From positions 32,001 through 96,000 of the IMG/VR virus record IMGVR_UViG_3300027141_000003: 64,000 bases of DNA. One strand, given 5' to 3'. The stretch comes from a virus. The number at the start of each line of letters is the position of its first letter. Position 1 is the first letter of the stretch. Below the pieces are notes generated by a model, which ran no database searches, was not told the origin of the DNA, and saw only the letters and a list, made by a program, of their open reading frames with translations. The position numbers and the translations under genes are program-made. Shown one piece after another: positions 44,899-64,000 of this stretch.

Positions 44899-44905
44899 AT
44901 GCTTA

Positions 44906-44934
44906 ATTTTATAACGTTATCGTATATAAGGCAA
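44906..44934 (-). promoter_or_regulatory. SigA-type promoter, leaderless (TTGCCT-N17-TAAAAT-N7-ATG)
   Basis: Read directly upstream of the ATG at 44898. Confidence 0.6.
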
Positions 44935-44951
44935 ATAATGGTTGAGCAGGG

Positions 44952-46535
44952 TCAGTCGACTTGTCTTCCGTCTCCTTGAGCATTTCTTCCCTCTCCAGAA
45001 ATATCGGGGGAATTTGCAGACCTTTCAGAATCTCTAGCTCTGGTTTTTCCTGCCTGTGCTCTAACCTCTGCCTGTGCCTGTGGCTTTAACTCTACAACTT
45101 TATCTCCACCATCAATTGGAACCATGCCCATTCTAATTCTTACTTCATTAGGAGTTACTACCTGCATCCTTAAATATCTTTCATCAATTTTAGACTGAGT
45201 GTCTTCGTCGGTCAAAGTAAGCTCATTAAATTTAAGAAGCAGGGCATCGGTCATTTCTTCAATAATTTTATTTAATTTCTTTTCTAAATTCATTTGTGCT
45301 GGGCGGCATACTTGCTCTCTAAATGTTTTATCGGCATCTCTGGCTACCGCTAAATTTACTCCCTCTGGAGTTCCAATTTTATTAATTGGCACACGGTGAG
45401 ATAATAGAATTTCGTCTCTATTTGATTTACGATATACGTTAAATGAAGACTCTTGGGTTCCCGCCTCAATTGGCTCCATCTTAAATTCAACCTTTGAATC
45501 TGGTGAATCTGGAGGAAGTGGAATATATAGAGATCTATGGTTCTTGCCCCTCAGTCCAACTTGGAAGAACTCAAGCAATTTACGCTCTGACTCTGTAGAA
45601 AGCTTTGCACCCTTTACTGTAATAATGTAACGAGGCACCGCCTTATTCTCAAAGTAATCAAGGTTGTACTTACCAGCAAATTCATTTCCTGCCATTGCAT
45701 TTGATGACGCTACAATATCTGGGATACCGTAGTAGTTATTTGTAGGGGTGTACTTCTTAAGATGAATAATTTCGTTAGGTCTATCTAGTCCGCCTGCAAT
45801 TGGATTCTCTGTTTCTTGATCTCCAAATGTACGGAAGAATACTGCCTTGCCATAAAGCAATTGAATAAATCCATCACGCAGTCTACGAATTCTCATAGTC
45901 TTTGCTGGAATGTGACCGATATATCCAATCTTGCCAGCAGATGTTCTGCCGATTTCAATATAGCCATTTCCTGTTGCTTCAACGTCTGTGTATGCTTTAA
46001 TTAATGTCTCTGTAAATGTTTCTTCTTCATTGCAATTCTCAAGCCACTCGTATAAATCTTGACGTAGTCTATTTAGCTTTCTACGAGCTCTCTCTAATGA
46101 TTTATCATCTGTAATATTATCAAACGCTTCTTGCGTTTTACGTGTTTCAACAAAGTCATGGCCAAGACCAACAATATTTGAAACCTTAGCATTAATTGCT
46201 GAATAGTTGTATGGAGAAATTTCATAAATAGTTGATAGGTAATCTAGGTTATAAGGAGGCTCAACAAGATCAAACATTGCATAGCCAGTGACTGCTTGCT
46301 GCAATAGGTTTTGCTGTGTCTCTGTTCCGTCAAGACCCTGAAATCTTTTTTGTAGATCTCTATTCATCTTGCGACGAAATGCTGGGCTAAGCCCTGAAAT
46401 TTTTGTTAGATCTTCTCCGCTCACCTTAAATAGGTCAGTAGTTGTTTCTTCTCTGGGAGTATTAAACTTCATCCAGTCCGCCACGTTTGAGACTACAATA
46501 TCTTGTGAGTCATCATCTTCTACAAATTTTGTCAT
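44952..46535 (-). CDS. Portal protein (PBSX/HK97-like)
   Basis: DVEATGNGYIEIGR, EIIHLKKY..YYGIPD, YFENKAVP, HRVP..IG and TPNEVRIRMGM.PIDGGD. Confidence 0.92.
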   Translation of the reverse strand: MTKFVEDDDSQDIVVSNVADWMKFNTPREETTTDLFKVSGEDLTKISGLSPAFRRKMNRDLQKRFQGLDGTETQQNLLQQAVTGYAMFDLVEPPYNLDYLSTIYEISPYNYSAINAKVSNIVGLGHDFVETRKTQEAFDNITDDKSLERARRKLNRLRQDLYEWLENCNEEETFTETLIKAYTDVEATGNGYIEIGRTSAGKIGYIGHIPAKTMRIRRLRDGFIQLLYGKAVFFRTFGDQETENPIAGGLDRPNEIIHLKKYTPTNNYYGIPDIVASSNAMAGNEFAGKYNLDYFENKAVPRYIITVKGAKLSTESERKLLEFFQVGLRGKNHRSLYIPLPPDSPDSKVEFKMEPIEAGTQESSFNVYRKSNRDEILLSHRVPINKIGTPEGVNLAVARDADKTFREQVCRPAQMNLEKKLNKIIEEMTDALLLKFNELTLTDEDTQSKIDERYLRMQVVTPNEVRIRMGMVPIDGGDKVVELKPQAQAEVRAQAGKTRARDSERSANSPDISGEGRNAQGDGRQVD

Positions 46536-46873
46536 CTTAGTTTACCTAACTTTTTCATTTCATCTTTATAGTTTCCAATATCCAAAGGATCTGGAACTAG
46601 TCCCCACTCAAGTCTTTGTTTTTGTTCTGCAAACTCTTCGTCGTTGATTTTCCGCCTAGCGGAAAGAAACTTAGGCCCGCCTTCATATATGCCGTATGAG
46701 CGAACTTCTCTAGCCAAAGCATCGATGAGGGATCTATTTCCCTTTTTGGACGTGACCGAAAGATAATTACCATCATCGTCTCCAATCCATCTGCCGTCAG
46801 GCATTTCCCAAACATATATGCCTAGGGTTGATTCATCTTGCAAAATTTTTGTATTAGTCTTCTTGATGTCCAT
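46532..46873 (-). CDS. Conserved hypothetical protein upstream of portal
   Basis: GIYVWEMPDGRWIGDDDGNYL. Preceded by TGGACT-N17-TAAAAT-N8-ATG (46882-46910). Confidence 0.6.
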   Translation of the reverse strand: MDIKKTNTKILQDESTLGIYVWEMPDGRWIGDDDGNYLSVTSKKGNRSLIDALAREVRSYGIYEGGPKFLSARRKINDEEFAEQKQRLEWGLVPDPLDIGNYKDEMKKLGKLR

Positions 46874-46936
46874 AGACCTTTATTTTACCATTACTTGCTG
46901 TCTAAGTCCAGCTTTTTGTCAAGGTGCGTGACAAAT

Positions 46937-48682
46937 TTATATACTTTGTACCACGATCCAGTCGTTATCATAGTATTCTGGTGCTTCTTCTGTCACATTG
47001 ATAGCTGGATCTACGACTGAAGTAGAAGGTCTTCCACAATATAAATCAAAATGTGTGTCTACTTCTGTAATTGAAAGGGCTCTAGGGTATAAGGCAATAT
47101 TATTATATAGATTATCTGGCCCCCCAGAAGATTCATAATTAAATTTAAATACTCCCGTAATTGGAGATGCAAATACTAAAACTATGTGGTGAGGCTCTCC
47201 TGGGACCAGGAAATTGTTTACATTTGTTTGCGATGTCTTATCTACCCCATTGACGTAAAGAGCGCTTATAGAGGCCTTAGAGACCGTTTGAGAGCCATTC
47301 CAGGCATACTTAGTGCCAGAGGCTGCGTGATAAAATAATGTATTTGCGCCATTAGTCTTAGGAGTAAAAAACATCTCTACTGTACTTATATTTAATCCAG
47401 TATTAGAATCAAATCCATACCCAGACTTAGCCCTAATTCCATTATTGTAGTGTCTAATTAATGGTGAATAATTTAATGATCCGACTCTAAATTGACTATT
47501 AGATCCAATATAACTATTTGAGTTGTCTGCATACACCAAGGATTCTCTATAGAACCTGATTGAAAAATAAGAAAGTCTAGGAAGGAACTTACTAGCATCT
47601 GTAGTAGACATTGTGATTTTTATATAAAGTAGCCCACTAGAATTAAATGATCCTTTTGTGTATTGTGGGATAGAGTCTCCATTTTCACACACTACATAAT
47701 TAGTTCCATCTATACTGGTTTGAACTGTAATTCCTAAGTCGTTCCGCCATTCAATTTTTGAATTTGTCAATCCACTTTCTGTTGGAATAAATAAAAAGTC
47801 TTCAATAATTAATGTTTTTGAGATAGCGGTTTCAGTCGGAATAAAGGATACATATTGACCTACTTCATCATAATAAGTATTAGAATCTATTACCTCGTCC
47901 CAAGGCTTGGATACACCGTATATGTAATCAAAGTCCACTCTGTTATTTAAATCTGAGCAAGAAAACACTGTGCCATTTTCTGGGTGCGCCACATGAATTG
48001 GCTGTATGTAATAATTGCCGTCATTGAAATGCTTTAATATCTTATCTCCTGTTAGCCCATATCTATATACCGCTGGAGCATCTACAATAAAGGAGTCAGA
48101 CACATTTGAGGTTGGACCAATTTGTAAGTCTAACTGTGTATTAGTAAATTTAAATGAAGAGTCTATAGATTTAATTGCTACCTGCTTACCATCTATAAAC
48201 AAGCTAATAGAATCAACCGAATAAACTCCTGCTACGTGAATAGCTTTTTTGCTATAAAATAATGCCCATCTAATTTGCTCCGTACTGGAAATTTTAAACA
48301 CTACATCTCCCTTTTCATAATATAAACCTATGCCGTCTGCAACATCTGCAAACAGAGGGGTTGATGTGGAAGATTGAATATCTTGACTTACCCATAGCTC
48401 TAAGGTAAAGTCATTGTCTGAAGAGTATTTGTTTCCTAGCCCATTTGAAACAGATGAGCCATAGAAGTCTTTTGATGTTGGTAGTGTTATATAAGCAGTA
48501 TTAGTTATTTTGGTTCCTGATCCGCCGCCTGCAATAATTGGCAACATGTTTGATGCGGGAGATCCCACATATGTAGCATTATTTCCACACCCTGAAATAT
48601 CTGCGGCATTAGTCCCCGAAGTCTCATCCAGTGGCCAAAACCCAATTGGATAATCTTTGATAACCTTCAGTGTATACGTCAT
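46937..48682 (-). CDS. LamG/concanavalin-A-like virion protein
   Basis: PIGFWPLDE.SG..AADISG.GN, FTLELW and HVAGVY...LFIDG. Two LamG-like units. Confidence 0.7.
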   Translation of the reverse strand: MTYTLKVIKDYPIGFWPLDETSGTNAADISGCGNNATYVGSPASNMLPIIAGGGSGTKITNTAYITLPTSKDFYGSSVSNGLGNKYSSDNDFTLELWVSQDIQSSTSTPLFADVADGIGLYYEKGDVVFKISSTEQIRWALFYSKKAIHVAGVYSVDSISLFIDGKQVAIKSIDSSFKFTNTQLDLQIGPTSNVSDSFIVDAPAVYRYGLTGDKILKHFNDGNYYIQPIHVAHPENGTVFSCSDLNNRVDFDYIYGVSKPWDEVIDSNTYYDEVGQYVSFIPTETAISKTLIIEDFLFIPTESGLTNSKIEWRNDLGITVQTSIDGTNYVVCENGDSIPQYTKGSFNSSGLLYIKITMSTTDASKFLPRLSYFSIRFYRESLVYADNSNSYIGSNSQFRVGSLNYSPLIRHYNNGIRAKSGYGFDSNTGLNISTVEMFFTPKTNGANTLFYHAASGTKYAWNGSQTVSKASISALYVNGVDKTSQTNVNNFLVPGEPHHIVLVFASPITGVFKFNYESSGGPDNLYNNIALYPRALSITEVDTHFDLYCGRPSTSVVDPAINVTEEAPEYYDNDWIVVQSI

Positions 48683-48703
48683 AATTCTATTATATACTAA
48701 CTC

Positions 48704-49297
48704 TTACCTTTTGAAAAAGAATATGGGCACCATATACTTAGTTCCAGATATTGTTGGCTTTGGATCATGCAAAACTCCTTCTGAGGCAAATACAACTACG
48801 CTTCCAGCTTCTGGCTTTAATGATATGCCGTGATCTGGGAATTCTATTTCTCCGCCTTCGTAGTCATCATTTAAATACATAACCATTGAAACAGTAGATG
48901 TATGCTCTGCCCCATCGTATGCGTCTACATGCGCCCCCATATGAACACCAACATTATATTTATTTATACCAAAATAAACTGGTAAGTATCCTAGTTCTAT
49001 TCCAGAACTAGCAGCATACTCTTCACCTATTGAGATTACATTTTGTGTAATCATAGAGCAAAGTTTGGCATTACTTCTATCTGCATCCGTAATGTTTTGA
49101 AACATATTTAAAAAGCATTTTTTTAGCTTCCCATAAGAAACATTACTATTTGATGCATTCCACTGTTCCCATTGTGATATTTGAGAAAAGGGACCCTGAA
49201 AGGCATCCATATCTTCAATCTCTTTTACAAAGGATATCGGGTCTGCAATAACATTTTTATAGTAATGTATTTCAGGATGTAAAATTTCTTTAATCAT
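48704..49297 (-). CDS. 2OG-Fe(II) oxygenase, prolyl-4-hydroxylase-like
   Basis: HVD...YLNDDYEGGEI...H...GTKY. Likely start MIKEIL at 49297 (track start 49327). Confidence 0.85.
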   Translation of the reverse strand: MIKEILHPEIHYYKNVIADPISFVKEIEDMDAFQGPFSQISQWEQWNASNSNVSYGKLKKCFLNMFQNITDADRSNAKLCSMITQNVISIGEEYAASSGIELGYLPVYFGINKYNVGVHMGAHVDAYDGAEHTSTVSMVMYLNDDYEGGEIEFPDHGISLKPEAGSVVVFASEGVLHDPKPTISGTKYMVPIFFFKR

Positions 49298-49997
49298 ATT
49301 TACCTTTATATGTTGGAATGTTGCCAACTTCTTGGCCCTTCTTCCACTCCTTATAGGTTTCTTCTTGTTCTGCTCTTGTTTGCTTTAATTCAGATTCCCA
49401 CTCCGCTATCTGCTCTGGAGTGTAAACAGCATCTGCATTATCCCAAAAGGATCCAACCGTGTATCTTTCTGCATTTTTAACAGTAGTCACTTCATGCTCA
49501 TTGCCATGCCCACCTTTAAAGAAGGCCAATCTTCCTGGCTTTGCTTTGACCACTATATCGTGATGTTTAAAGTTTAGGTCCCCACCTTCAAAATTATCAT
49601 TTAGATATAAGAATCCAGCATACTTACTTTTATAAAATGCAGATGGGCTTCCGTCTTCATGTGTATTGTCTGAATGAAAACTAGCAAATGCTCCAATAAC
49701 CCATTTTTGTGCATGATAGCTTACCTCTGATAGCTCTCTACCAAAACACTCTTCTCCAGCTTTTTTAATTTTTTCCTTTAATTGAGAAAAGTAATCTGAT
49801 GGCAGCCCAAACAACAATAGGTTATCGTCATGTGGCCAGTAGCCCATGGCAAATGAGCCATAAAAAGAAATTTGGTTCCACTCTAAATGTCCTGCATTTA
49901 CAATTCCGTCTAGGTATCCAATAATAGACTTACATTCCTCTTCTGTTATTAAATTATCAATAATAAAGACATCGTCTTTTAAAGCTGTTATTTCCAT
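49290..49997 (-). CDS. 2OG-Fe(II) oxygenase, prolyl-4-hydroxylase-like
   Basis: HSD...YLNDNFEGGDL...HEV...ERYT. Likely start at 49997. Confidence 0.85.
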   Translation of the reverse strand: MEITALKDDVFIIDNLITEEECKSIIGYLDGIVNAGHLEWNQISFYGSFAMGYWPHDDNLLLFGLPSDYFSQLKEKIKKAGEECFGRELSEVSYHAQKWVIGAFASFHSDNTHEDGSPSAFYKSKYAGFLYLNDNFEGGDLNFKHHDIVVKAKPGRLAFFKGGHGNEHEVTTVKNAERYTVGSFWDNADAVYTPEQIAEWESELKQTRAEQEETYKEWKKGQEVGNIPTYKGKYD

Positions 49998-50839
49998 TAG
50001 CATTCCTTCTTTTCTGCTTTAGATACAAAATCTAAATGATCTTCTATTTCTTTTTTAGTTGGCTCAACCTTTTGGCCATCTTTAAACACTAAGTTTCCTC
50101 CATAAATGTCGGCGTCTATTCTTGCCTGTTCCATTTCGGCCCAACGTTTTGCCCCATACTTAAGCTGGTTAGCAAGCCACTCTTCTGATCCTGCATACGG
50201 GTAGATCATAAAGTTTCTAATAAGATACTTGTTACCTCTAGTAGCTGTTCTAACTCCGTGATAATAAGGCTCTCCAGATGGAAATACCATGATGTCTCCA
50301 GCCTCTGGTTTATATGCAGGAACAAATTCCCCGTCTACATAAAATTCAATCTCTCCACCTTCATAGTCATCATTGATGTAAACAGTGCATGTTAAGAAAA
50401 ATTGATTGCCTGGCATGTCTTTTTCGCTTTGCTTAAAATCTGTATGGTACTGCATTGTTAAATTATTTTTTAAAGCGTCTACATTTGTGTGGTATTTACA
50501 GAAAGAAGAAGAGCCAAGCTTGCAATCTTCTGGAAGATCAATTTTATACTTATCAATATAATCATCAATTGCTAAGTTATAGGCATCATATACTGTTTCT
50601 GCGGCCCAATATTGCAGATCAAACTCTTCATCTTTACCCAATTGATCTTGAACCCCACCTTTAAATTTTGTGCTGGCATAATTACCGAAAGCACTCCAAG
50701 GGGTCCATGGGTTAAAGTATTTGTCTCCAGTATTGTTTTCTGTAGATTGAATTACTTCAAATATTTTCTTATGATCTGGTAGTAAGTTTTTGTAAACTTC
50801 AATTCTAGGATATAGTGTTTTTGTTACAAGACTCGACAT
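49997..50839 (-). CDS. 2OG-Fe(II) oxygenase, prolyl-4-hydroxylase-like
   Basis: HTD...YINDDYEGGEI...HGV...GNKY. Confidence 0.85.
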   Translation of the reverse strand: MSSLVTKTLYPRIEVYKNLLPDHKKIFEVIQSTENNTGDKYFNPWTPWSAFGNYASTKFKGGVQDQLGKDEEFDLQYWAAETVYDAYNLAIDDYIDKYKIDLPEDCKLGSSSFCKYHTNVDALKNNLTMQYHTDFKQSEKDMPGNQFFLTCTVYINDDYEGGEIEFYVDGEFVPAYKPEAGDIMVFPSGEPYYHGVRTATRGNKYLIRNFMIYPYAGSEEWLANQLKYGAKRWAEMEQARIDADIYGGNLVFKDGQKVEPTKKEIEDHLDFVSKAEKKEC

Positions 50840-51507
50840 TATTTGCCTCTTCCCAACTTATCTATTGTCCAGAACCACGGAGAAGTGTATCTGGTGCCTT
50901 CTGTAATTATATCAACACCGTGAATATAATTTAAATCTCCAGGGAAAAAATAGGCTGCTTTTTTCTTTGGCTTAAAAGCAACTTTTTGTTTAGGGAAATG
51001 CAACCTACCACCTTCGTAGTCTTCATTTAAATAAAAGATTGTTCCTAAGTCATACCAAGGGAAGTTACCTGGCTTGCCAGCATCTGGACCTTCATGTAGC
51101 TCTTTGTCGGCATGGGGCCATTGCATTGATCCAACTGGCCATCTAACTAGACACGGTCCAGTAGGCGTTACCTCTACATCAAAATGTTCTTCTATAACTG
51201 GCTTTAATCTGTTAATGATTACTTCAAGCATTTCTACTACTTCTGGCCCTGTTTGATCTAAGGACTTCTTCGTAGCTACTCGGTCTTTCCAGACATTATG
51301 CTGGTAAATAATTGTTCCGTTTTCGTTGTATACATCTTCGCCTGGATCCCAAGTTGTATTATTTTTAGCAAACTCTAGGAGGTAATCACACTCTTCATCT
51401 GTTAAAAAATTTTCAACTTCTACTATATTCTCTGGGCCTGCGCCAAAATATCCAGATGGTGTTATAGACGTTCTGTGATCTCTTATGTCGGAAATGTTTT
51501 TATCCAT
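50839..51507 (-). CDS. 2OG-Fe(II) oxygenase, prolyl-4-hydroxylase-like
   Basis: NFLTDEEC, HAD...YLNEDYEGGRL...HGV...GTRYT. Confidence 0.88.
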   Translation of the reverse strand: MDKNISDIRDHRTSITPSGYFGAGPENIVEVENFLTDEECDYLLEFAKNNTTWDPGEDVYNENGTIIYQHNVWKDRVATKKSLDQTGPEVVEMLEVIINRLKPVIEEHFDVEVTPTGPCLVRWPVGSMQWPHADKELHEGPDAGKPGNFPWYDLGTIFYLNEDYEGGRLHFPKQKVAFKPKKKAAYFFPGDLNYIHGVDIITEGTRYTSPWFWTIDKLGRGK

Positions 51508-51523
51508 TTATTATATCCTTTTC

Positions 51524-52252
51524 TTATTCATACTTTTTGGGAACCCAAGTTTTTTGCTTATAAACTCCATATTTTACTTTTCCTAAACTATCTTCTCTAT
51601 AAATTTTTGTATGTGCTTCGTGGCTATTTGCCATTTCTTGTTCTGTAAACAAGTTAAATTCGGAAGACCAATTTTCTCTTTTGTAGGGGAAAATTTGTGC
51701 GTAAGGAGTTCCTTTTTTAATTATACCCTGAAAAGTATTTTTTATAAAAAACGGGATAAGCCCTGGGGCCCCGTACTTATCACTATCAATTATACCTCCT
51801 GTGGTCAAAAAAGGCAGCTCGAAATGATTTATAGGTTGCATTACAAGGGCGCTATAGCCCTTTGGTAAAGTGAACCCCCAGTCTGGGTACCAATGAAATC
51901 CTTGGTTGTAATATCCTTCTGGATAGTGGAATTGACCCATATGAGGCCTGCCTTCACAAAACCCCGCAAAACCTTGCTCTGGCTGAATATAAATACTATC
52001 GTTATATTTAGTAACCGCTACATCACATGGGGTTGTAAACATATATCCTGAAGAAAAAACATCATGTAATGCTGGACAAGATTTAAATCCAGGACCTTTG
52101 CTATTGTCTGGTGGTAAATCTATTACTGCGTCATTTTCATCAGTCCAATATTTGCTTGCATTTAAAAACCAATCTGGAGTAGTTTTTTTTGCTGGAGAAG
52201 GCACAGTATTTTTATCGTTATATGCCCTATTGGAATTAAAAACAATTTTCAT
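51524..52252 (-). CDS. DUF6065-like hypothetical protein
   Basis: PAKK..PDWF, FKSCPALHD..SSGY, GIIDSD and IKKGTPYAQIFPYKRE. Confidence 0.55.
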   Translation of the reverse strand: MKIVFNSNRAYNDKNTVPSPAKKTTPDWFLNASKYWTDENDAVIDLPPDNSKGPGFKSCPALHDVFSSGYMFTTPCDVAVTKYNDSIYIQPEQGFAGFCEGRPHMGQFHYPEGYYNQGFHWYPDWGFTLPKGYSALVMQPINHFELPFLTTGGIIDSDKYGAPGLIPFFIKNTFQGIIKKGTPYAQIFPYKRENWSSEFNLFTEQEMANSHEAHTKIYREDSLGKVKYGVYKQKTWVPKKYE

Positions 52253-52971
52253 TTATTTAGATTCTTAACATCTAGCTTAATTGATTTAACTTCATGCTCT
52301 CCTAGAGCATTACCCATGTAGTCTACGGCATCTCTGTAGTAATCCGTCCACTTACCTTCGGCATTAGCTTTTTCAGCAGCAGCCATTGCTCCCTCAAGAG
52401 TAAGAGGGATATCTCTTTTTAGAAAAGGAGCATCGTGTCCTTCTCCCAAATTAATTGTAGAATTATTTAATTGAGTAAGAGATATTGGCATTATTGCAAT
52501 TATAGGATCATTTGCCTTTATTGTAATTGGTACAAATGGTCTTGTAATTTTCCATGCAACTGGGAGAGGCCCTTCAAAAAAAGATGTAGTTAAAATACTT
52601 GTGACTGCGCTGGCCCCATCTACAAAATGATTAGGAACTGGGAAAGATAAAAGGCTGTAGTCTTTATCCGTTACAAATCTAAGGTTGGTTTTAAAGTTAA
52701 TTGTTGCGTGTCCTCTACCAGTTTCACAGTATTTTTCTCCTTCTAAAATTTTTACATTGTCTGGATAGGTGCTTGTTATTCCATCCCACATAAAGGTTAT
52801 ATTTTCAGGAAAAGACAATCCCCATCCTATTTGATTGCTAAGTGTAATTGGAAAACATCTATATGCATGCTTATGAGCAGTTTCATCCATCCAGTCTCTT
52901 TTTGCAGAAAGTGGTGTTATGTTTGCAGAAAATGAAGATCCTGAAACCTTATAGGCATTTAAATTAATCAT
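52249..52971 (-). CDS. DUF6065 family protein
   Basis: RDWMD..HAYRCFPITLSNQIGW, IKANDPI and YYRDAVD..G...EH. Likely start at 52971. Confidence 0.65.
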   Translation of the reverse strand: MINLNAYKVSGSSFSANITPLSAKRDWMDETAHKHAYRCFPITLSNQIGWGLSFPENITFMWDGITSTYPDNVKILEGEKYCETGRGHATINFKTNLRFVTDKDYSLLSFPVPNHFVDGASAVTSILTTSFFEGPLPVAWKITRPFVPITIKANDPIIAIMPISLTQLNNSTINLGEGHDAPFLKRDIPLTLEGAMAAAEKANAEGKWTDYYRDAVDYMGNALGEHEVKSIKLDVKNLNK

Positions 52972-53662
52972 TATTTTTTCCCCCTTCAATAACATAAAGA
53001 CTTATTTTTTTTGTTTCGTGCTGGCCTACAACATTTCCATATTGGTCTAATCCGTCTCTGTACCAGTTTGTAAATCCATTTTTCGATAAACTAAATTCTT
53101 GCATTTTTTTCATGTATTCTTCGTCATGTTTTAAATTGGGCACTTCTTTATTGTGCATTGTAATTGATGACTTATTCAATTCGGACAAAGATATCGGAAT
53201 TATTGATGCTACGGGTGTGCCAGCTTTAATGGTAATAACTTTATTTTTAGACAGAACCTTCCATACAACTTGAAGTCCTGCTGTATAAAAAGATGAAGAT
53301 GTTATTGAAGTAAGGCATTGAACATCTTCTGCAATTTGATTTGGAACGGGCATAGTTAAAATACTAAAATTTGAATCTGTTTTAAATATTAAATTTGTTG
53401 CAAAACATATTACTGATTGCCCACGTTCAAAAAAACAATATTCTTCTCCGCTTATTACTTCTATCCCAGACTCATTTCCATTATCATTTAAAACAAATGA
53501 AATATCTTTTGGGAATGATATACCCCATCCAAGTTCATTTGATATAGTCAATGGCGGACAGTTGTATGCATATGGATGAGTTTGCATCCATTCTCTCTGT
53601 GGCTTTAATGGAGATAGTATTGCCTCTAAGCCACCTGTTCTATAGCAATCAAAGTCTATCAA
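52964..53662 (-). CDS. DUF6065 family protein
   Basis: REWM..YAYNCPPLTISNELGW, IKAGTPV and WYRDGLD..G...QH. Paralogue of 52249..52971. Confidence 0.65.
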   Translation of the reverse strand: MIDFDCYRTGGLEAILSPLKPQREWMQTHPYAYNCPPLTISNELGWGISFPKDISFVLNDNGNESGIEVISGEEYCFFERGQSVICFATNLIFKTDSNFSILTMPVPNQIAEDVQCLTSITSSSFYTAGLQVVWKVLSKNKVITIKAGTPVASIIPISLSELNKSSITMHNKEVPNLKHDEEYMKKMQEFSLSKNGFTNWYRDGLDQYGNVVGQHETKKISLYVIEGGKNND

Positions 53663-54403
53663 CTACATATCCCTTTGTTCGGCAGGCTTAAATCTTTTCC
53701 CTTCAACCAAGTGGTTGTACTCGTAGCTAGCTTCGATTTCTCGATACATTGGAGTATGAGGTGCTTCTTGATAGTCTAACATTGTTACAATTGCATATTT
53801 AGTTCCTGATTTAACTGGCATTGCTGCATGAGAATATATATAAGAAGACGGGAAAAGATATAGGTCTCCAGCTTTAGGTTTTACTGTAACGCCAAGCTTG
53901 TCAAAAAATAGCTCTCCGCCTTCATAATCATCATTGATATACCCTACTGAAGACAATACGCATACGTAAGAATATCCATGATCGGAATGGACATTAAAAT
54001 GTTGGTTTTTGCCGTACTTAATAAAATTAAACGACTCCCAATAATTTAACGGAGGAATTTGAAACATTTGCATATAGTCTGCTACTGCCGACATTTGAAG
54101 ACTTTTTGCTTCTCTCCAAATTTGCCTTAATTCAATTTCATCTTCAGTAAAATCTTTTGGGTCAACATGAGTTCCATTACCCAGCATTAATGATCCGCCA
54201 TCGTTTTCTTTAATTTTAAAATCCCAAGCATCTCTGTAGTCTTTATTTAATGTATCGTATCCAGTCTGGGCTAGATTCCAATGCTTCTTGCCCTGTGTCT
54301 TAGATAGCACTGACTCCAGCCTTTGATCTAAATTATATTCTTTTTTAAAAACATCTCTGTATACAACAATTCCAGGATATATTGTTTCTGCATTTGGCAA
54401 CAT
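53663..54403 (-). CDS. 2OG-Fe(II) oxygenase, prolyl-4-hydroxylase-like
   Basis: HSD...YINDDYEGGEL...FPSSYIYSH...GTKY. Confidence 0.88.
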   Translation of the reverse strand: MLPNAETIYPGIVVYRDVFKKEYNLDQRLESVLSKTQGKKHWNLAQTGYDTLNKDYRDAWDFKIKENDGGSLMLGNGTHVDPKDFTEDEIELRQIWREAKSLQMSAVADYMQMFQIPPLNYWESFNFIKYGKNQHFNVHSDHGYSYVCVLSSVGYINDDYEGGELFFDKLGVTVKPKAGDLYLFPSSYIYSHAAMPVKSGTKYAIVTMLDYQEAPHTPMYREIEASYEYNHLVEGKRFKPAEQRDM

Positions 54404-55030
54404 TTAATTAACCACCTTTTTGTGTTTTCTATCAACATAGTCATCGTATTCTTTTGAATGAGCATCATCATTATAGTCTAACATTGTTACAAAAGAGTAC
54501 TTCACCCCAGAATCCACTGGAAGGGCCACATGAGAATAAATAAAGGAAGACGGGAAAATTATTAAGTCTCCTTCATTAGGCTCTATATGTAAATCGAACT
54601 TAGGAAAAAAAAGACCTCCGCCAGTATAGTCAGAATTAGGATATCCAACTAATGATACGGTAGATTTATAAGACCATCCATCGTCAGCATGCTCTTTAAA
54701 AAATTGATTTGGATAATACTTTACAACATTTGTCCATTCCCAAAAATCCATTTTAATGCTGTACATTTCACAAAAATCTTCTACTTGATCTTTTTGGCAA
54801 CTGTATATGTCATTGTATATATCTAAATATTCTGGCTTATCGTAAATCTTTAAGTCTTGACAATTTCTATACTCTAAATCTTGATCTTCTAAAGATACCG
54901 TTGCAATATCCCACTTTAAAATATTATCGTTTACCTTATCTTCAATTCTTTGAATTAAATTTAATTCTTTAGGGAAGGCATTTGGATATTTCCAGATGCC
55001 TGGATATAGCTGTTGTTTGTTATATATCAT
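54404..55030 (-). CDS. 2OG-Fe(II) oxygenase, prolyl-4-hydroxylase-like
   Basis: HAD...DYTGGGL...FPSSFIYSH...GVKY. Paralogue of 53663..54403. Confidence 0.88.
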   Translation of the reverse strand: MIYNKQQLYPGIWKYPNAFPKELNLIQRIEDKVNDNILKWDIATVSLEDQDLEYRNCQDLKIYDKPEYLDIYNDIYSCQKDQVEDFCEMYSIKMDFWEWTNVVKYYPNQFFKEHADDGWSYKSTVSLVGYPNSDYTGGGLFFPKFDLHIEPNEGDLIIFPSSFIYSHVALPVDSGVKYSFVTMLDYNDDAHSKEYDDYVDRKHKKVVN

Positions 55031-55036
55031 AAATAT

Positions 55037-55065
55037 ATAATATCATTTTAAACAGTCCTAGTCAA
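55037..55065 (-). promoter_or_regulatory. SigA-type promoter, leaderless, for the oxygenase cluster (TTGACT-N17-TATTAT-N6-ATG)
   Basis: Fills the 39-nt gap between the Hint-domain gene and the first oxygenase. Confidence 0.65.
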
Positions 55066-55069
55066 TAGG

Positions 55070-56662
55070 CTATGCTAGGGTTTTGCAGCCGTTGTAAGCC
55101 AGCATTGATTCTGCTGCTATTAGTCCCCATGGCTCTCTATAAAACAAAAATACCTTGGTTTCTTTTTCAACAACTTCAAGTGATTCAATATTGATAAATT
55201 CTTCTATACCATCTTTATAAAATACAATTTGATCATTTTCTTTAAGATTTGATGTTGTTGCAAACTGATATCTACCGCCTCTTTTTATTAAAATCTGCTC
55301 AACTGTAGACAAGTCGTTTTTTTCTTCATTGTTTATTCTAATAACAGTAGTATTGGTCTTTTCGTAAATATTAAAGACCGTAGACTCAACATAAGATACG
55401 TTGTTCAATGTATCTGCTCTCCAGTTCTCTACTAGTTCCAAACAGTTCCTCGTAACTTCGCCTATGCTACAAGCGTCGTCTCCTTCTGGGCTATCGTCAA
55501 AGTTTACTGTTAACAAAATATCTCCGTTAACGATTTCTTTGGCTTTTTTGTAGCCATTTTTTGTTAAGACATTGGTATCTTCTGGAATACAAAAAGTTGG
55601 CGGCGCAAAGAATCTAGGTGGAGAAAAGAATCTAGGTGGTGAGAAGAATCCTGGTGGCCCAAAGAATCCTGGTGGCGAGAAGAATCCTGGTGGAGAAAAG
55701 AATCTTGGTGGTGAGAAGAAGCCTGGTGGAGAAAAGAATCTAGGCGGTGAGAAGAATAGGGGAGGTGAGAAAAATAGGGGAGGTGAAAAGAATCTAGGAG
55801 GAGCGAAGAATAGGGGAGGGGCAAAGAATAGAGGTGGAGAAAAGAATCTAGGCGGAGCGAAGAATAGAGGTGGGCTGAAGAATAATGGTGGGCTGAAGAA
55901 TAATGGTGGGGAGAAGAATAATGGTGGGGAGAAGAATCTTGGCGGGGCAAAAAAATCAGGTGGGGCAAAGAATAGAGGTGGTGAAAAGAATGTAGGAGGG
56001 GAAAAGAATGTTGTAATTTGATTTGAGGATCTTGGCAAAGACGTTCCATTTGCATTTACTGCAACTACAGAATAAGTTTGAACTGTTCCCATTGTTTCTC
56101 TAATGTTAATAGTTGTTGTTGTACCAGTAACTTCATAAGGAGAAGCTAATCCTCCTGGCTGAGCCGCCGTATCGGTAGATGTAATAATATATTTTGTTAA
56201 AGGCTTTCCACCAGAAGTTGATGCAGACCAAGAAACAACATCCTGACCTCTTAGGTCTTCTGTTGTGTGTCCTGGTCCAGTTGTACTAGAAACTGCAGTT
56301 ACTGATGCTGGAGCAGCAGGTATGGTTGTAAATAAAACAGGAGAAGAGGCGGTTGATGCATCTGATTGTCCATTTGCGTTGGTTGCCTTTACAGTTGCCG
56401 TTCCTGTTGCACCTTGTGGAATACCAACAATTGTAATTGGAGAAGATGCTCCAATATCCGAAAATGTTCCTTGATCAGTTACTAAAGTAGCGGTGTAGCT
56501 TACAATTGGTAGCTGGTTTGGTGGATACTCAAAAGAGATTATAGCTGAAGCATTGTTAAAAGGCCTGTTTGTTCCAACGTCTGTTACAACAACATTTATA
56601 GGTGGTATGGGAAGTTCAAAGTCTCCAGAGAGCTGAGATTTTCTACCAACTTTTTTACCCAT
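55070..56662 (-). CDS. Fn3-like domains + (FFxPPx)23 repeat + C-terminal Hint (intein-like) domain protein
   Basis: Two Fn3-like units (ATVKATNANGQS; YSVVAVNANGTS), 23 hexapeptides, then CIPEDTNVLTKNGYKKAKEIVNGD (Hint block A) and MLAYN (block G-like). Confidence 0.8.
   Translation of the reverse strand: MGKKVGRKSQLSGDFELPIPPINVVVTDVGTNRPFNNASAIISFEYPPNQLPIVSYTATLVTDQGTFSDIGASSPITIVGIPQGATGTATVKATNANGQSDASTASSPVLFTTIPAAPASVTAVSSTTGPGHTTEDLRGQDVVSWSASTSGGKPLTKYIITSTDTAAQPGGLASPYEVTGTTTTINIRETMGTVQTYSVVAVNANGTSLPRSSNQITTFFSPPTFFSPPLFFAPPDFFAPPRFFSPPLFFSPPLFFSPPLFFSPPLFFAPPRFFSPPLFFAPPLFFAPPRFFSPPLFFSPPLFFSPPRFFSPPGFFSPPRFFSPPGFFSPPGFFGPPGFFSPPRFFSPPRFFAPPTFCIPEDTNVLTKNGYKKAKEIVNGDILLTVNFDDSPEGDDACSIGEVTRNCLELVENWRADTLNNVSYVESTVFNIYEKTNTTVIRINNEEKNDLSTVEQILIKRGGRYQFATTSNLKENDQIVFYKDGIEEFINIESLEVVEKETKVFLFYREPWGLIAAESMLAYNGCKTLA
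55595..56008 (-). repeat. 18-bp degenerate tandem repeat x23 encoding FF(S/A/G)PP(L/R/G/T/D)
   Basis: 414 bp = 23 x 18. Unit count confirmed from both strands' translations. Third codon positions vary. Confidence 0.95.
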
Positions 56663-56675
56663 TTAATTGCCTTTC

Positions 56676-57176
56676 TTAAACAGTTAAGTCACCAAATAGA
56701 AGCCAGGTGTTGGCGTCTCGTTTTAATAGTGTTGCCATTGACCACTGGAATCTTAATTTGTTGCCTGGAGTGTAATTTAAAACTACACCTGCGCCAGCCA
56801 CAACGGTTGTTTGGCCTGTTCCAGATTGCAAAATATCTAAAGTTGTTCCTACGGGGAAATTTACAACAGAGTCTGCTGGTATTGTAAAATTATTTGCAAC
56901 TTGCATTCTAATGTCTACAATTGTATCTCTTTGATTTAAGTTATTAAGCGTATGCGGGAAATAATAAGTATTAATTGGGGTTAAAGATTGTACGGCTGTT
57001 TTGCTCTGAATTCCATCTTGAAATACTACAGTTCCGCCTGCAAGATTTAAAGTGCCAGCCAAATTAACTGTTCCAGCTAAGGTTGTTGTTCCTTGAAATC
57101 CAGCTCTGTCATTCACTGATAAGGACTTGACTTGCAAGTCCTCATCAGTATTGAATTTACCTTTATTGAGGGCCAT
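56676..57176 (-). CDS. Fibre-associated virion protein
   Basis: C-terminal FPVGTTLDILQSGTGQTTV...LRFQWSMATLLKRDANTWLLFGDL domain common at phage fibre ends. Confidence 0.55.
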   Translation of the reverse strand: MALNKGKFNTDEDLQVKSLSVNDRAGFQGTTTLAGTVNLAGTLNLAGGTVVFQDGIQSKTAVQSLTPINTYYFPHTLNNLNQRDTIVDIRMQVANNFTIPADSVVNFPVGTTLDILQSGTGQTTVVAGAGVVLNYTPGNKLRFQWSMATLLKRDANTWLLFGDLTV

Positions 57177-57185
57177 GGCTTTACC

Positions 57186-60100
57186 TTATGCCTGGGCTTC
57201 TGTCCAAGATAGTCTTCCGAACACAGATGCTGTTGATGTTCCAATATTTTGAACAACGATTGTCAAAACATCTGGTCCGTCAGGATAAATTCCAACGTTA
57301 GAGGTTGTTCCTCCACCACCCAAGATTGAGTTTCCTAAATCACGAACATTTGATAGGTCGATTGAGTTTGCTCCAGATCCTAAGAAGAATCCTGCTGTAA
57401 CTTCACCACCTGTAACTGTTGTAGATCCACCAGAGTAATCTGAGATCTGAGATAGTGATGAGTTAGCAATACCTGCTACGTTACCAACTGCGTTTGTCCA
57501 AGTAGTTGCGGAGCTTGAAACTCCATTCAAAATTGCTGTAACAAGTAGGTTTGCTGCGCCCGAAGCCGTAGTAGCAGTTACATCAAGAGCCTTTAGGGCT
57601 AGCTGCATTCTGTTAATAAGTTCACGTTGTCCAAATGCTGCGGCAATACCGTTATCAACTGAAGGAGCAAGTCTTATTGCAAAGAGCGCTCTGCTTTGTC
57701 CTGATGCTACAGAAGTTGAAGTTCTTTGTCCGTAAGTAAACACGAGGGATTTATCTTCATCAAATCCGCCGTCCATAATTACTGAAGTTCCCCAGTGTGA
57801 TATAGAAGCTGCAAAGCTTGGGTAAGCTAGCTCTACCATTGTTGGTGACACTGGATCTAATGTAAATAGTTGAGCGCTTGTAGCTCCCATAGGGACTGCA
57901 ATGACTCCTGTTGGGTTTGCCGATAGTGCTGCAAAGCTAGTCTTGAGTGTTAGTCCATTTATAGAGTGAATAAATGTGCCTTCTGGGTAAGCTGCGCTAA
58001 TTAATCTCATACCAGCTTGTAGATTAGCCACGCTAGAAACTGTTCCTTCAGAAGAACCAACAGCTTGAGTTATGCTTAAGTTAGCTTCTCCTGCTCTACC
58101 TCTTGTAAGACCAGTAAATGATGTATCTGATTTTGCAGAGTAATTTACATACTCTACAGCAGATTCATTTTTAATTGCTAGAGTTCCAGCTTGTGGGAAT
58201 CCTGCTGTTGACCTTACATTTAGAGCTAAGTCTGTTGTCAAAACAGTTTGAGTTGTTGCTGTGTATGCTGGAGTAGTTGAAGATTCATAGCGTCCTGGAA
58301 GGTTTCCGCTTCGCATATATGCTTCTGTGTTAACGTTATTGTTAGGCATCTTGTGGCAATAAACAACGTCACCCTTTGGGCCTCTTACTCCCCATCTTAC
58401 GAAACCTGCACCATACCATGTGTAGTCAATATAGAACATCTGCATCTTTGAAAGATCGATATTATATTGGGATGGTCCTGTTCCATCTAGCTTGTCCATA
58501 TTAAATTCGGACTGTTTAATTCTAGTTTCTTGTGTTTTCGATATAATTGCAAATGATGTCGATGCGCCTCTGTAAGCAGGGCTAATAGTCATAGATGCAT
58601 CAGTTCCAATTCCAACTACCTTATAGGATTGTCCTCTAATTACAACGTAATCTCCTGGTATTAGCTGCTTTCCAAACGCAGTTGGGAAGTAAGCATCTGA
58701 CTGAGTAACTGTTGCTGAGTTTTGAGTAACGCTTACTTTACCAGAAAGCTGGAAAGTTGAATTTCTTTTAACTGCAGATAAATTTTGACCGTCATACTCC
58801 CAGAATAATCCATTTTGATTGTCAAACATTCCTAGTCTGTTTTGGCATCCATACCAAGACTCTACAGATACAAAGAATGCTCCTGTAGCAAGTGAGGATG
58901 ATGGGGTAGCTGGGGCTTCATAAGTAAACTTATCGTCTGAAAGAACATTTACAATTGCAAATGATCCATTGTATGCGGCTTGATCACATCCACCAACTTT
59001 TACTATTGTTCCTGGTTGCAGATTGTGTTTTTCTTTTGTTTGAACTGTTACTATAAGACCAACGCTTGAAATACTTTCAACTCCTGCGTATGGCTTTAAA
59101 ATTGTACCAGATGATACCTGAAGTCCTTTACCAGATTGATATCTAAAATATCTTCTAGTCTGTCTAATACATGATGCGTAGTTTGATGAAGCATTTGTGC
59201 CAAAGAGCACTCCTCCATCATTTGGTCTATGAGCAAAAGTAGATTGAGGTCTTACGTAAATTACCATTGGGCCTGCAAGAGTTCCCGTTGGGGCCGCATC
59301 TGCATAGTAAGAAAATGTTGATGGGCCAGTAATTTGAGCAACTTCCTGATTTCCATTTGGAGGATTAGTTGATGCTGTAGATCCTAGCACAACAATTTCA
59401 TTTCCAAGAGCAAGTCCGTGAGGAACTTGTGTTGTTACAGTTATCTTTCTTCCACTATATGTAAATGATGTTGGAAGGCCACCAATTGATGCTCCAGTAA
59501 AAAGATCTCCCTGGGTAATAAGAGTTTTATTAGGATCAAATATAGCTGTTATACCAGTTCTATTTACTGCGCTTGCAGCGTATGTAAATGTTGTGGTTCC
59601 ACCGCCAGATTCAATCACAAAGTTTCCATTTGCAGCGGTTAAGTATGTGTCAACTACGCTAATTGGAGTTCCGTTTGCTGGGGCTGCGCCTGATGATAGG
59701 GTTACTGAAACTGTTCTTCCTAAAGCAGCGTATGTAATTGAAGAAATATTAGCAATAGGGGTTGGTCGGGCAAAAGAAAATGGCTTGTTGTTATATAGCC
59801 CTAGATTTTCCCATTTTGTTTGCTGAATACCATATTCAAAGTCGGTGTCAATGAGTGCTTTAGGCTGAGTTACTCTTAGCTTATTTGTTGTATCCAGCAA
59901 AGTTTCTGCTGGCATAAATGTTTCGTTGGCATCATCAATTGTGATTTGGATCTTATCGTTAGAAGACATCGATGCAGTGTTGTATTCTAGAACAAGTGTC
60001 GTGTTCTCTACCATTGCGGTGCTTGTGCTTGTATTGTATGCAGTACATCCTAAGCTAGGATCTGAGAAGTTATAAATAACCTGATTTGTTGTTACGTTTG

Positions 60101-60203
60101 TAATCAACAGCAGTCTTTCTCTCAAAATTGTCTTTGGAATTGAGATCGTTCTCGTTGAAGGTGTAAATGTGTAGCTTGTCTCTAGTAATACTTTTCTTGC
60201 CAT
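57186..60203 (-). CDS. Large virion structural protein
   Basis: 1005 aa, beta-rich. TVTTQVPHGL/QTKEKHNL repeated small barrels, QTRRYFRYQSGKG and DYTWYGAG motifs seen in aquatic-phage structural proteins. Confidence 0.55.
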   Translation of the reverse strand: MARKVLLETSYTFTPSTRTISIPKTILRERLLLITNVTTNQVIYNFSDPSLGCTAYNTSTSTAMVENTTLVLEYNTASMSSNDKIQITIDDANETFMPAETLLDTTNKLRVTQPKALIDTDFEYGIQQTKWENLGLYNNKPFSFARPTPIANISSITYAALGRTVSVTLSSGAAPANGTPISVVDTYLTAANGNFVIESGGGTTTFTYAASAVNRTGITAIFDPNKTLITQGDLFTGASIGGLPTSFTYSGRKITVTTQVPHGLALGNEIVVLGSTASTNPPNGNQEVAQITGPSTFSYYADAAPTGTLAGPMVIYVRPQSTFAHRPNDGGVLFGTNASSNYASCIRQTRRYFRYQSGKGLQVSSGTILKPYAGVESISSVGLIVTVQTKEKHNLQPGTIVKVGGCDQAAYNGSFAIVNVLSDDKFTYEAPATPSSSLATGAFFVSVESWYGCQNRLGMFDNQNGLFWEYDGQNLSAVKRNSTFQLSGKVSVTQNSATVTQSDAYFPTAFGKQLIPGDYVVIRGQSYKVVGIGTDASMTISPAYRGASTSFAIISKTQETRIKQSEFNMDKLDGTGPSQYNIDLSKMQMFYIDYTWYGAGFVRWGVRGPKGDVVYCHKMPNNNVNTEAYMRSGNLPGRYESSTTPAYTATTQTVLTTDLALNVRSTAGFPQAGTLAIKNESAVEYVNYSAKSDTSFTGLTRGRAGEANLSITQAVGSSEGTVSSVANLQAGMRLISAAYPEGTFIHSINGLTLKTSFAALSANPTGVIAVPMGATSAQLFTLDPVSPTMVELAYPSFAASISHWGTSVIMDGGFDEDKSLVFTYGQRTSTSVASGQSRALFAIRLAPSVDNGIAAAFGQRELINRMQLALKALDVTATTASGAANLLVTAILNGVSSSATTWTNAVGNVAGIANSSLSQISDYSGGSTTVTGGEVTAGFFLGSGANSIDLSNVRDLGNSILGGGGTTSNVGIYPDGPDVLTIVVQNIGTSTASVFGRLSWTEAQA

Positions 60204-60207
60204 ATTC

Positions 60208-63200: not shown

Positions 63201-63504
63201 TATAGGCATCGTCATTCCAAAGAATAACTGAGTTTTCTGGGATAATTAAGTCGCCGTTCGCATCAAGTTCTGCTGGTCCTCCAGGATTTCCTTGATCGGA
63301 TACGAGTATATAGTTTCCAAGGCTGTTAGTTAGTCCAGAAGGAGTAACGTTTGCATATCCAGAAGTAGCATTCCATGCTGAGCCGTTACCAATTTTAAAT
63401 TTAAGGGTATCTGTTTCAATACCAATTTCACCTGCTCGTAATGTTGGGTTTACTGAAGTCCAATTTGCTGCTGTGTCTCTGCGTAATTGAATTCTAATTG
63501 CCAT
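60208..63504 (-). CDS. Tail-fibre-like protein with Mtd_N-type N-terminus and internal repeats
   Basis: [39 protein letters not shown], many TxTLTNKT units, and three KSDVGLxNVDNT..KPxSTAxQTAL units. Confidence 0.75.
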
Positions 63505-63920
63505 TATGCACCACCTCCGTCAATATAATCACCTAGAAAATTTGAACTATTACTTCCTGAATTTGCAAAAATTCTAGAGTCATCGACATACTCTCCATAA
63601 TTTACGTCTTCTACTATACCACTTGATACGTTGTGGGTGTGCTCCAAAATTTCTTTTGGTCCCGCAACATCATACCAAGCTTGTCCATTGTAGCCTTTAA
63701 ATGTATTTTCTGATGTATCAAAATAAAGTTGCCCTAAATCTGGATTAGCTGGTGGTCCTGATAATACTGAAACTCCTGTAGAAACATTTTCCCAAGCCGT
63801 ACCAGAATAAAACTTTAGCTTTCCAGTTACACTATTATAGTAAATAGCTCCAGCTATTCCTACAGATGGATCTGCAGTAAGCGCTGGTGGTGCTATAGGC
63901 GTTAAGAATTTTTTTGTCAT
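63504..63920 (-). CDS. Small fibre-associated protein
   Basis: Two GxxYY/FxxxxxxxKxYxGxxW units, Pro-rich. Confidence 0.55.
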
Positions 63921-63923
63921 ACT

Positions 63924-64000
63924 TTATCCGACAATAACTACTCTGTATGCTCCAGCTGTTGGCTGTGCTGCAAATGTTAGAGTTGCTGTTGAAGTAGATG
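63924..64000 (-). CDS. C-terminal fragment of a fibre-like protein (5' end outside the window)
   Basis: Translation ...STSTATLTFAAQPTAGAYRVVIVG* ends 3 nt before the next ATG. Confidence 0.6.
   Translation of the reverse strand, partial: STSTATLTFAAQPTAGAYRVVIVG

Follow-up and report, generated by a model that had tools for sequence, protein, structure and literature searches.

A phage Phe-Phe-x-Pro-Pro repeat gene is linked to an array of 2-oxoglutarate oxygenase and DUF6065 genes in the fibre region of two groups of phages

Few auxiliary metabolic genes are as common in aquatic phages as those for 2-oxoglutarate (2OG)-Fe(II) oxygenases. Arrays of oxygenase genes have been seen in phages since 2010 and, to our knowledge, their substrate is not known. 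The closest described system is the tandem dioxygenase array gp41-gp54 of Synechococcus phage Syn9, for which synthesis of a secondary metabolite was proposed without a protein substrate being named; the same authors noted a dUTPase-fold protein within the array and suggested that dioxygenases of bacteria might act on tail-collar and collagen-like proteins (Iyer, Abhiman, de Souza and Aravind, 2010, Nucleic Acids Res 38:5261, PMC2938197). A second point of reference is the prolyl 4-hydroxylase (P4H) of the chlorovirus PBCV-1, which hydroxylates viral proline-rich repeats, for example (Pro-Ala-Pro-Lys)n, in vitro (Eriksson et al., 1999, as cited in PMC3634087). Here we describe a block of ten genes at 48704-56662 of a 64,000-nucleotide stretch of virus DNA (the window), which comprises bases 32001-96000 of the 109,912-bp record IMGVR_UViG_3300027141_000003, a record with direct terminal repeats. 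The block consists of a gene for a protein with a Phe/Pro-rich repeat (REP) followed by genes for six P4H-type oxygenases (ox1-ox6) and three DUF6065-like proteins (duf1-duf3).

REP (55070-56662, minus strand) encodes a protein of 530 amino acids composed of two Fn3 domains, 23 FFxPPx units and a C-terminal Hint domain, as judged from its translation, an AlphaFold2 (AF2) model and an alignment of 24 sequences. Every gene of the region around the block is carried on the minus strand, and the spacing from REP towards the LamG gene that closes the block is operon-like: the successive gaps, taken from the coordinates, are 39, 0 and 0 nt, an overlap, a 4-nt overlap, 16 nt, a 1-nt overlap, a 7-nt overlap, an overlap and 21 nt. 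The original prediction had described this gene organization in three statements, all of which are borne out: that a single gene encodes Fn3 domains, 23 repeat units and a Hint domain (translation, AF2, Foldseek and VIA), that six 2OG-Fe(II) oxygenase and three DUF6065-like genes are tightly packed downstream of it (PF13640, PF19541, phrog_7084 and the coordinates), and that the block lies inside the virion module between the fibre genes and the LamG and portal genes (annotation of the flanks).

The association of the repeat with the enzymes was followed in two directions. In the forward direction, REP was used to scan IMG/VR, which yielded 77 loci, and the window proteins were mapped onto these by phmmer. 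The order fibre, p166, REP, ox1, ox2, duf2, duf3, ox3, (ox4), ox5, ox6, LamG, portal is kept down to ~30% REP identity. Oxygenase or DUF6065 genes lie within 6 kb downstream of 68 of the 77 repeat open reading frames (ORFs); four more are on contigs that are too short, and the remaining five, which have no such enzymes within 6 kb, comprise L062 and four second copies that stand behind other fibre genes in large genomes with the oxygenase-oxygenase-DUF6065 triad ~9-16 kb away. The reverse route was taken because the forward association alone could be plain synteny. A distant DUF6065 protein, P0158 (35% identity over about half of duf2), retrieved 45 loci. In all 39 of these with at least 1.5 kb of upstream sequence, the triad has an aromatic-Pro repeat ORF no more than 6 kb away, and the other six are cut at their upstream end.

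The loci fetched with DUF6065 belong to phages of 143-205 kb. When five such genomes were searched with the window portal, four had no match, among them a 97%-complete genome of 204.9 kb, and a complete genome of 172.5 kb had a marginal one (21% identity, E 8e-5). The module therefore sits on unrelated backbones. A check of the large phages for the T4-portal family found no match anywhere, controls included, and so is uninformative. In both phage groups the repeat gene comes after fibre genes and a fibre-end domain of the p166 type; synteny indicates that in the large phages this domain terminates the fibre gene immediately ahead of the repeat gene. On the evidence of gene order, repeat and enzymes have a functional link and are not neighbours by chance. 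The original prediction had called for a search for co-occurrence and adjacency, and the linkage was found by both routes of selection. It had also proposed that the repeat is the dedicated substrate of its neighbours: the linkage that this implies stands, in both directions and across unrelated head modules, and the substrate relation itself is a reading of that linkage, which is weighed below.

The repeat takes the form (FFxPPx)n or ([F/Y]FPP)n, and the proteins that carry it have three architectures: Fn3-Fn3-repeat-Hint; four Fn3 domains and the repeat followed by a stop codon; and forms of ~135 amino acids with an N-terminal part, the repeat and then either ...PPxFK-stop or a short Cys-rich tail. 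Some large phages have repeat proteins that end in the [F/Y]FPP tetrapeptide variant, with 9-16 units (L112:2724-3965, a multi-Fn3 protein of 414 amino acids; L110:141-332; L118:362-472). Cys-rich tails take the place of Hint in short repeat proteins of large phages (L048:1426-1833, L060:2769-3125, L068:9914-10222), with endings such as ...C-V-K-G-E-C-S-C-C-V-P-C and P-P-P-P-P-C-P-N-C...; there are several such genes per genome, each behind a fibre gene. ORFs that by eye resemble sulfotransferases and carbamoyltransferases are found near the oxygenases in L111 and L117. A DUF6065 scan of species-representative genomes gave only four matches (L081-L084), on contigs of metagenome-assembled genomes (MAGs) labelled Bacteroidota; these have the same block of fibre, REP, oxygenase, DUF6065 and portal genes, so that they probably represent phage DNA assigned to the MAGs in binning and provide no cellular context.

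The 23 units of REP span residues 219-356 (55595-56008, minus strand) and are uninterrupted, all being perfect matches to FF.PP. at the protein level. Tandem Repeats Finder reports an 18-bp period with 22.4 copies and 78% matches at 55607-56009. The third position of the unit is Ser in 16 units, Ala in six and Gly in one, and the sixth is Leu in nine, Arg in seven, Gly in four, Thr in two and Asp in one; the two Phe and two Pro residues are the same in 23 of 23. At these fixed positions, compared over 1012 unit pairs, there are no first- or second-base differences and 47% third-base differences. Since the repeat is invariant in protein while its third bases differ, selection acts at the protein level and the tract is not a product of recent slippage. 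F-F-x-P-P is under purifying selection, and FFxPP is retained in REP relatives down to ~30% identity. The first Phe of the unit is encoded by TTC in 21 of 23 units, compared with TTT for 81% of the Phe codons in seven large window genes; with this preference, stretches of six consecutive T are avoided, which may keep slippage in check.

In the AF2 model, which was built on 24 relatives, the repeat has a predicted local distance difference test score (pLDDT) of ~40 and no regular secondary structure. An ORF scan of the 64-kb window identified REP as its sole PP-rich ORF and found no collagen-like ORF, and a Pfam scan of REP alone returned nothing at E 0.01. The spacing of Gly at every third residue that is typical of collagen is absent, with Gly at the sixth position in just four of 23 units, and a collagen triple helix is therefore not expected. 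Distant REP relatives come nearer to collagen, with the unit G-F-F-(S/A/G)-P-P, a small residue at every third position and an X-Pro-Gly context. S-P-P, which may be compared with the Ser-Pro(n) motifs of extensins, is present in 16 of 23 units. The original prediction had allowed for a glycosylated, extensin-like product; there is no glycosyltransferase among the nine enzyme-array genes or the flanking genes scanned.

The regions on either side of the repeat are modelled as folded domains. The two Fn3 domains (residues ~15-220; 56003-56620, minus strand) have a pLDDT of ~90, and this N-terminal part matches Fn3 tandems with Foldseek (E 1.8e-10) and the FnIII tandem of titin with VIA (Z 14.8). 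The Hint domain (residues 355-524; 55073-55591, minus strand) is a confident all-β domain of the bacterial intein-like (BIL) type. Its best VIA match is the BIL domain of Clostridium thermocellum (2lwy; Z 15.0, root-mean-square deviation of 2.1 Å for 132 aligned residues), followed by Tetrahymena BIL2 (6tmm; Z 14.3), hedgehog (1at0; Z 13.7) and inteins (Z 12-14). A sequence profile of the domain finds 2lwy in the PDB at E 1e-5, and inteins too; TIGR01445, the intein N-terminal region, matches at E 0.0035, which is under the cut-off.

Cys358, the expected nucleophile of the Hint domain, immediately follows the last repeat Phe, and the first Hint residue is Cys in 18 and Ser in six of the 24 aligned relatives. 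At the position of the block-B motif Thr-x-x-His the window protein reads S-T-V-E. This Glu is found in clade members with at least ~40% identity, and TxxH is kept in some distant relatives. The C-terminal end reads A-Y-N and then G-C-K-T-L-A: the terminal Asn is retained, the penultimate His of the splicing end (His-Asn followed by Cys, Ser or Thr) is Tyr, the +1 residue is Gly, and a tail of six residues follows. The catalytic sets thus differ between clades, being Cys1, S-x-x-E and Tyr-Asn in the window, Cys1 with His-Asn in others, and Ser1, TxxH and Phe-Asp in others again. The window end is compatible with cleavage and not with canonical splicing, which is unlikely. The original prediction had noted that Hint domains cleave themselves through Cys1; here the Cys is present and the block-B His is missing, so that self-cleavage of the window protein is plausible, not assured. 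The junction reads ...PPxF|C in the Hint forms and the short forms end in ...PPxFK*. Cleavage would therefore leave the same kind of C-terminal Phe/Pro tail as that with which the short forms are translated, and this is the chief reason for viewing Hint as a removable maturation domain.

The six oxygenases are encoded on the minus strand by ox1 (54404-55030; PF13640 E 1.4e-8, HAD...H-x10-K-Y), ox2 (53663-54403; PF13640 E 2e-12), ox3 (50839-51507; PF13640, HAD...H-x10-R-Y), ox4 (49997-50839; PF13640 E 1.4e-9), ox5 (49290-50003; PF13640 E 3.7e-9) and ox6 (48704-49327; PF13640 E 1.1e-11). Against the curated PF13640 cut-off of 27 bits, five of them score 36-48 bits, and ox3 scores 26.0 bits in the ORF scan and 27.4 bits in a six-frame search of the genome. 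The iron triad and 2OG site, HxD...H-x10-(K/R)-Y, are present in all six. The closest solved relatives of ox2 are the prolyl 4-hydroxylase of Bacillus anthracis (E 3.5e-5), PiuC and collagen lysyl hydroxylase. Peptidyl-proline hydroxylation by the six enzymes is putative, the similarity of ox2 to the B. anthracis enzyme being the evidence that points to it. Among the related loci of the two phage groups, ox3 is universal and an ox2-type gene almost so; in a few loci the gene at the ox2 position scores best as ox1. The six are 25-44% identical to one another, and each orthologue is 50-70% conserved in phages whose portals are 70-82% identical. Given this low mutual identity and the good conservation of the orthologues, the six are old paralogues, each of which has been kept, which suggests that their roles are non-redundant. 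The genome encodes two additional PF13640 proteins, of 205 and 174 amino acids (L127:3146-4288, which corresponds to G000:C1:14646-15788); these share 26-40% identity with ox1-ox6 in partial alignments, and a regular expression for H-x10-K/R-Y does not match them.

The DUF6065-like genes lie between ox2 and ox3 on the same strand: duf1 (52964-53662; PF19541 E 7e-25, 88 bits), duf2 (52249-52995; PF19541 E 3e-30, 106 bits) and duf3 (51524-52252; phrog_7084 E 7e-32). With a PF19541 cut-off of 26.6 bits, duf1 and duf2 are clear members and duf3 has no Pfam match; phrog_7084 is matched by duf1 and duf2 too, more weakly. The families are tied together by hhalign, which aligns duf3 with the duf2 family at a probability of 75 (E 2.5e-5) with the invariant Cys of each in register, and by Atlas clusters with 12-23% PF19541 members. 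The duf1 gene is an extra copy, 40% identical to duf2, and among the loci examined is found only here and in L006. In the closest relative, L001 (REP ~90% identical), ox2 is directly followed by duf2, without duf1.

The AF2 model of duf2 (pLDDT 84.5, predicted template-modelling score 0.80) has the jelly-roll fold of dUTPases, with a VIA Z of 10.6 to human dUTPase. The 13 chains with a Z of at least 8 are dUTPases, except for one that is a herpesvirus dUTPase-related protein (pp71); dCTP deaminases follow at Z 5.5-6.7 and the next unrelated chain at Z 4.1. Foldseek searches of the PDB and of viral models concur. At the level of sequence there is no PF00692 match at E 0.01 or better in the whole genome, and the duf3 profile finds no PDB sequence even at E 10, and so no solved dUTPase. 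One Cys, Cys47 of duf2, is invariant in its family. The invariant G-I-I-D-S-D-x-Y of duf3 (residues ~152-160) and its later P-Y-A-Q-I are reminiscent of dUTPase motifs 3 and 4, respectively, a resemblance that no tool result supports. The idea that DUF6065 might be a cupin or oxygenase-like partner was rejected on the basis of the fold. The original prediction had grouped DUF6065 with the hydroxylases in a single array; DUF6065 is not itself a hydroxylase, its fold being that of a dUTPase and one Cys being conserved, and the association of such a protein with phage dioxygenase arrays was published in 2010 (PMC2938197). A literature search found no paper on DUF6065.

The best-supported explanation of the locus, held with moderate confidence and based on the conserved linkage, is that the repeat is the dedicated substrate of the adjoining enzymes. 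That the block as a whole is one functional module of the virion (fibre) region is a proposal to which, from the gene content, we give similar weight. We infer a substrate, a modified residue, a Hint cleavage and a product on the virion that would fit together as follows. REP would be made late as a pro-protein, Fn3-Fn3-(FFxPPx)23-Hint. In the infected cell the six P4H-type 2OG/Fe(II) oxygenases would hydroxylate residues of the repeat, with proline the likeliest target and each enzyme probably acting on a different position. The DUF6065 proteins, with their dUTPase fold and conserved Cys, would be obligate partners. Hint would then remove itself through Cys358 by an N-S acyl shift at Phe357|Cys358, so that a fibre-associated protein would end in the repeat as its C-terminal tail, an end point that the short homologues would reach by means of a stop codon (...PPxFK*). 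A bolder joint reading, which we regard as speculative and quite improbable as a whole, is that these parts make up a new virion appendage: a multiply hydroxylated Phe/Pro tail of the polyproline-II type, the terminal Phe of which would be ligated through the Hint thioester to a virion protein or a component of the host envelope, by analogy with hedgehog and BIL-ubiquitin-like systems, with DUF6065 as a new Cys-dependent peptide-modifying enzyme on a dUTPase scaffold.

Several observations weigh against the repeat as a dedicated substrate. PF13640 enzymes have substrates of many kinds, and the P4H-type similarity is weak (E 3.5e-5). The two additional PF13640 genes lie far from REP among small non-structural ORFs. 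Lone homologues of duf3 adjoin thymidylate synthase and DNA polymerase genes in haloarchaeal viruses and a ribonucleotide reductase gene in S-RIM4. Neither FFxPPxFFxPP nor [F/Y]FPP[F/Y]FPP is present in the genomes of Syn9, S-PM2 and S-RIM4. Since the Syn9 array, the lone duf3 homologues and the extra PF13640 genes exist, the enzyme families are broader than the repeat, and by these sequence comparisons only one subfamily of triads is tied to it. Both phage groups may also have acquired the module as one block, in which case the loci are not independent events, and the S-T-V-E reading of block B counts against the Hint step. The original prediction had itself regarded the routine occurrence of arrays lacking a Pro-rich repeat as evidence against it: the Syn9 array is of this kind, and the 39 DUF6065-fetched loci with sufficient upstream sequence all carry the repeat.

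These points leave room for other explanations. The array might make or tailor a small molecule or modify a host target, as an auxiliary metabolic or secondary-metabolite system, with REP a mere neighbour in a variable fibre region. This is what Iyer et al. proposed for the Syn9 array, which contains a duf3 homologue and lacks a Phe-Pro repeat (PMC2938197); the PHROGs category of these oxygenases is likewise 'moron, auxiliary metabolic gene', and the non-structural setting of the two additional PF13640 genes fits it. Set against this, the pairing of repeat and triad persists across unrelated backbones and in every DUF6065-selected locus with enough upstream sequence, and the genes are tightly spaced and co-directional inside the late virion module. 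The block and the scanned flanks contain no halogenase, nonribosomal peptide synthetase or transporter gene, nor any other gene of small-molecule type. We consider the explanation unlikely, though one to be taken seriously. Alternatively, the targets of the enzymes might lie elsewhere in the virion, in the large fibres, the LamG protein or p166, and REP might be a structural component or assembly factor and not the principal substrate. The fibre genes differ between loci while the repeat motif is constant, and the window has no other Pro-rich or collagen-like ORF, so that this too seems distinctly unlikely, even though the module always stands behind fibre genes, p166 is as constant a neighbour as REP, the Syn9 array likewise follows fibre and Gly-rich fibre-tip genes, and tail-collar and collagen-like substrates have been proposed for bacteria (PMC2938197).

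Two further explanations are given little credence. If the array acted on nucleotides or DNA, its place in the virion module would be incidental; the dUTPase fold of duf2 (Z 10.6), the nucleotide-metabolism and replication neighbours of duf3 homologues in other viruses and the lack of a canonical dUTPase in this phage (PF00692 search of the genome) would then find an explanation. Such a role is highly unlikely given the strict linkage to the repeat gene, the P4H type of the oxygenases, the Tet_JBP matches of which are far under the cut-off, and the fact that none of the three DUF6065-like proteins matches the dUTPase hidden Markov model. The original prediction had offered, as a second possible product, a multi-core precursor of the kind that gives rise to ribosomally synthesized and post-translationally modified peptides (RiPPs), the repeat being cut into small modified peptides. 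Many core-like identical units beside tailoring enzymes, with a domain of a self-cleaving type at the end, do recall such a precursor. A protein of 530 amino acids with two folded Fn3 domains fits this poorly, however; its units have no separating cleavage motif, Pfam scans of the block and flanks found no peptidase, transporter, exporter or RiPP recognition element, and the gene belongs to a late virion operon behind fibre genes, all of which makes a RiPP-like precursor very improbable. The repeat as the substrate of its neighbouring enzymes, on a protein of the fibre region, remains the explanation that we prefer.

The surroundings of the block are those of a virion module. Upstream of REP, an Mtd_N-domain fibre gene (60208-63504) is followed on the minus strand by the gene for a phrog_5838 virion structural protein (57186-60203), which is 45% identical to p175 of cyanophage S-PM2, and by p166 (56676-57176), a free-standing copy of a fibre C-terminal domain with PHROG matches to the C-termini of tail and fibre proteins. 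Downstream, the LamG-domain gene (46937-48682, minus strand) is followed by p113, the portal gene (44952-46535) and, in the same flank, a prohead protease gene. Promoter-like and terminator-like sites in the 46.5-60.5 kb interval occur at chance level (43 versus 45.7 expected and eight versus 9.2 expected, respectively), and transcription units cannot be inferred from them.

The portal is 58% identical to those of Streptomyces phages of ~127 kb, and a WhiB-family gene (PF02467, 44.8 bits, above the cut-off) is found at G000:C1:21353-21526, ~10.5 kb before the start of the window; for these two reasons the host is probably a freshwater actinobacterium. Megablast and tblastn searches of isolate phages with the block, REP, duf2 and ox3 gave no match, and hence no cultured relative. 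The DNA of this uncultured river phage recurs across riverine metagenomes, and contigs of four riverine metatranscriptome libraries cover all of 44001-64000, at a word depth that is ~27-31 in the phrog_5838 gene and 1-9 in the oxygenase genes; contigs of RNA libraries indicate presence only and are uninformative about transcription, strand or level. Two riverine RNA libraries have contigs in which 742 bases of the phrog_5838 gene are missing and 57662 is joined directly to 58405. The shorter side of this join is only 20 letters long, and a variant, a repeat or an assembly artefact are all possible.

The interest of the locus is that an oxygenase array is here accompanied by a single, constant partner protein that is open to cloning and direct testing. 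Were the hydroxylation to prove true, such genes would shift from host metabolism to the modification of virion proteins, and the product would be the first natural hydroxylated structural protein of a phage. The locus would also provide a context for DUF6065, as a dUTPase fold put to another use, and a phage case of the Hint-mediated maturation of a structural protein. A literature search found nothing on 2OG oxygenases and hydroxyproline in phage virions.

The comparison with the systems described at the outset shows both kinship and difference. Like the Syn9 array, that of the window immediately follows tail-fibre genes and combines tandem, mutually distant 2OG dioxygenases with a dUTPase-fold protein that has a conserved Cys. 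The Syn9 array comprises ten dioxygenases and gp43, which is homologous to duf3 (hhalign probability 95.3, E 2e-8). Unlike the window, it also has two tryptophan halogenases and a JmjC/MINA-type member, none of which was found by Pfam among the nine window genes or their flanks. In the gp35-gp39 region of Syn9 (L126:7932-12328), the genes between the fibre genes and the array are extremely Gly-rich (gp36) or have a Gly_rich_2 domain (gp38 and gp39). It may thus be a more general rule that arrays of this type lie next to low-complexity proteins of the fibre tip.

The likeness to PBCV-1, as far as the cited account describes that system, lies in a virus-encoded P4H-type enzyme and virus-encoded Pro-rich repeats as candidate natural substrates. 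PBCV-1 is, however, a eukaryotic virus with one enzyme, for which that account gives activity on peptides in vitro, whereas the window phage has six paralogues, DUF6065 proteins, an aromatic-Pro-Pro repeat and an attached Hint domain. The prolyl 4-hydroxylase of B. anthracis (3itq, 5hv0), the nearest solved relative of ox2, is similar to it in the catalytic core only. The Hint domain resembles the BIL and hedgehog domains in its fold, in the Cys that comes first after the cargo, in its C-terminal position and in having no homing endonuclease; it differs from them in the replacement of the block-B His by Glu and of the penultimate His by Tyr, and in the Gly that follows the terminal Asn, which makes splicing unlikely. 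What is new compared with Syn9 and PBCV-1 is a repeat partner of the aromatic-Pro type that lies in a fibre context and has a Hint end, together with the distribution of the module over two phage backbones.

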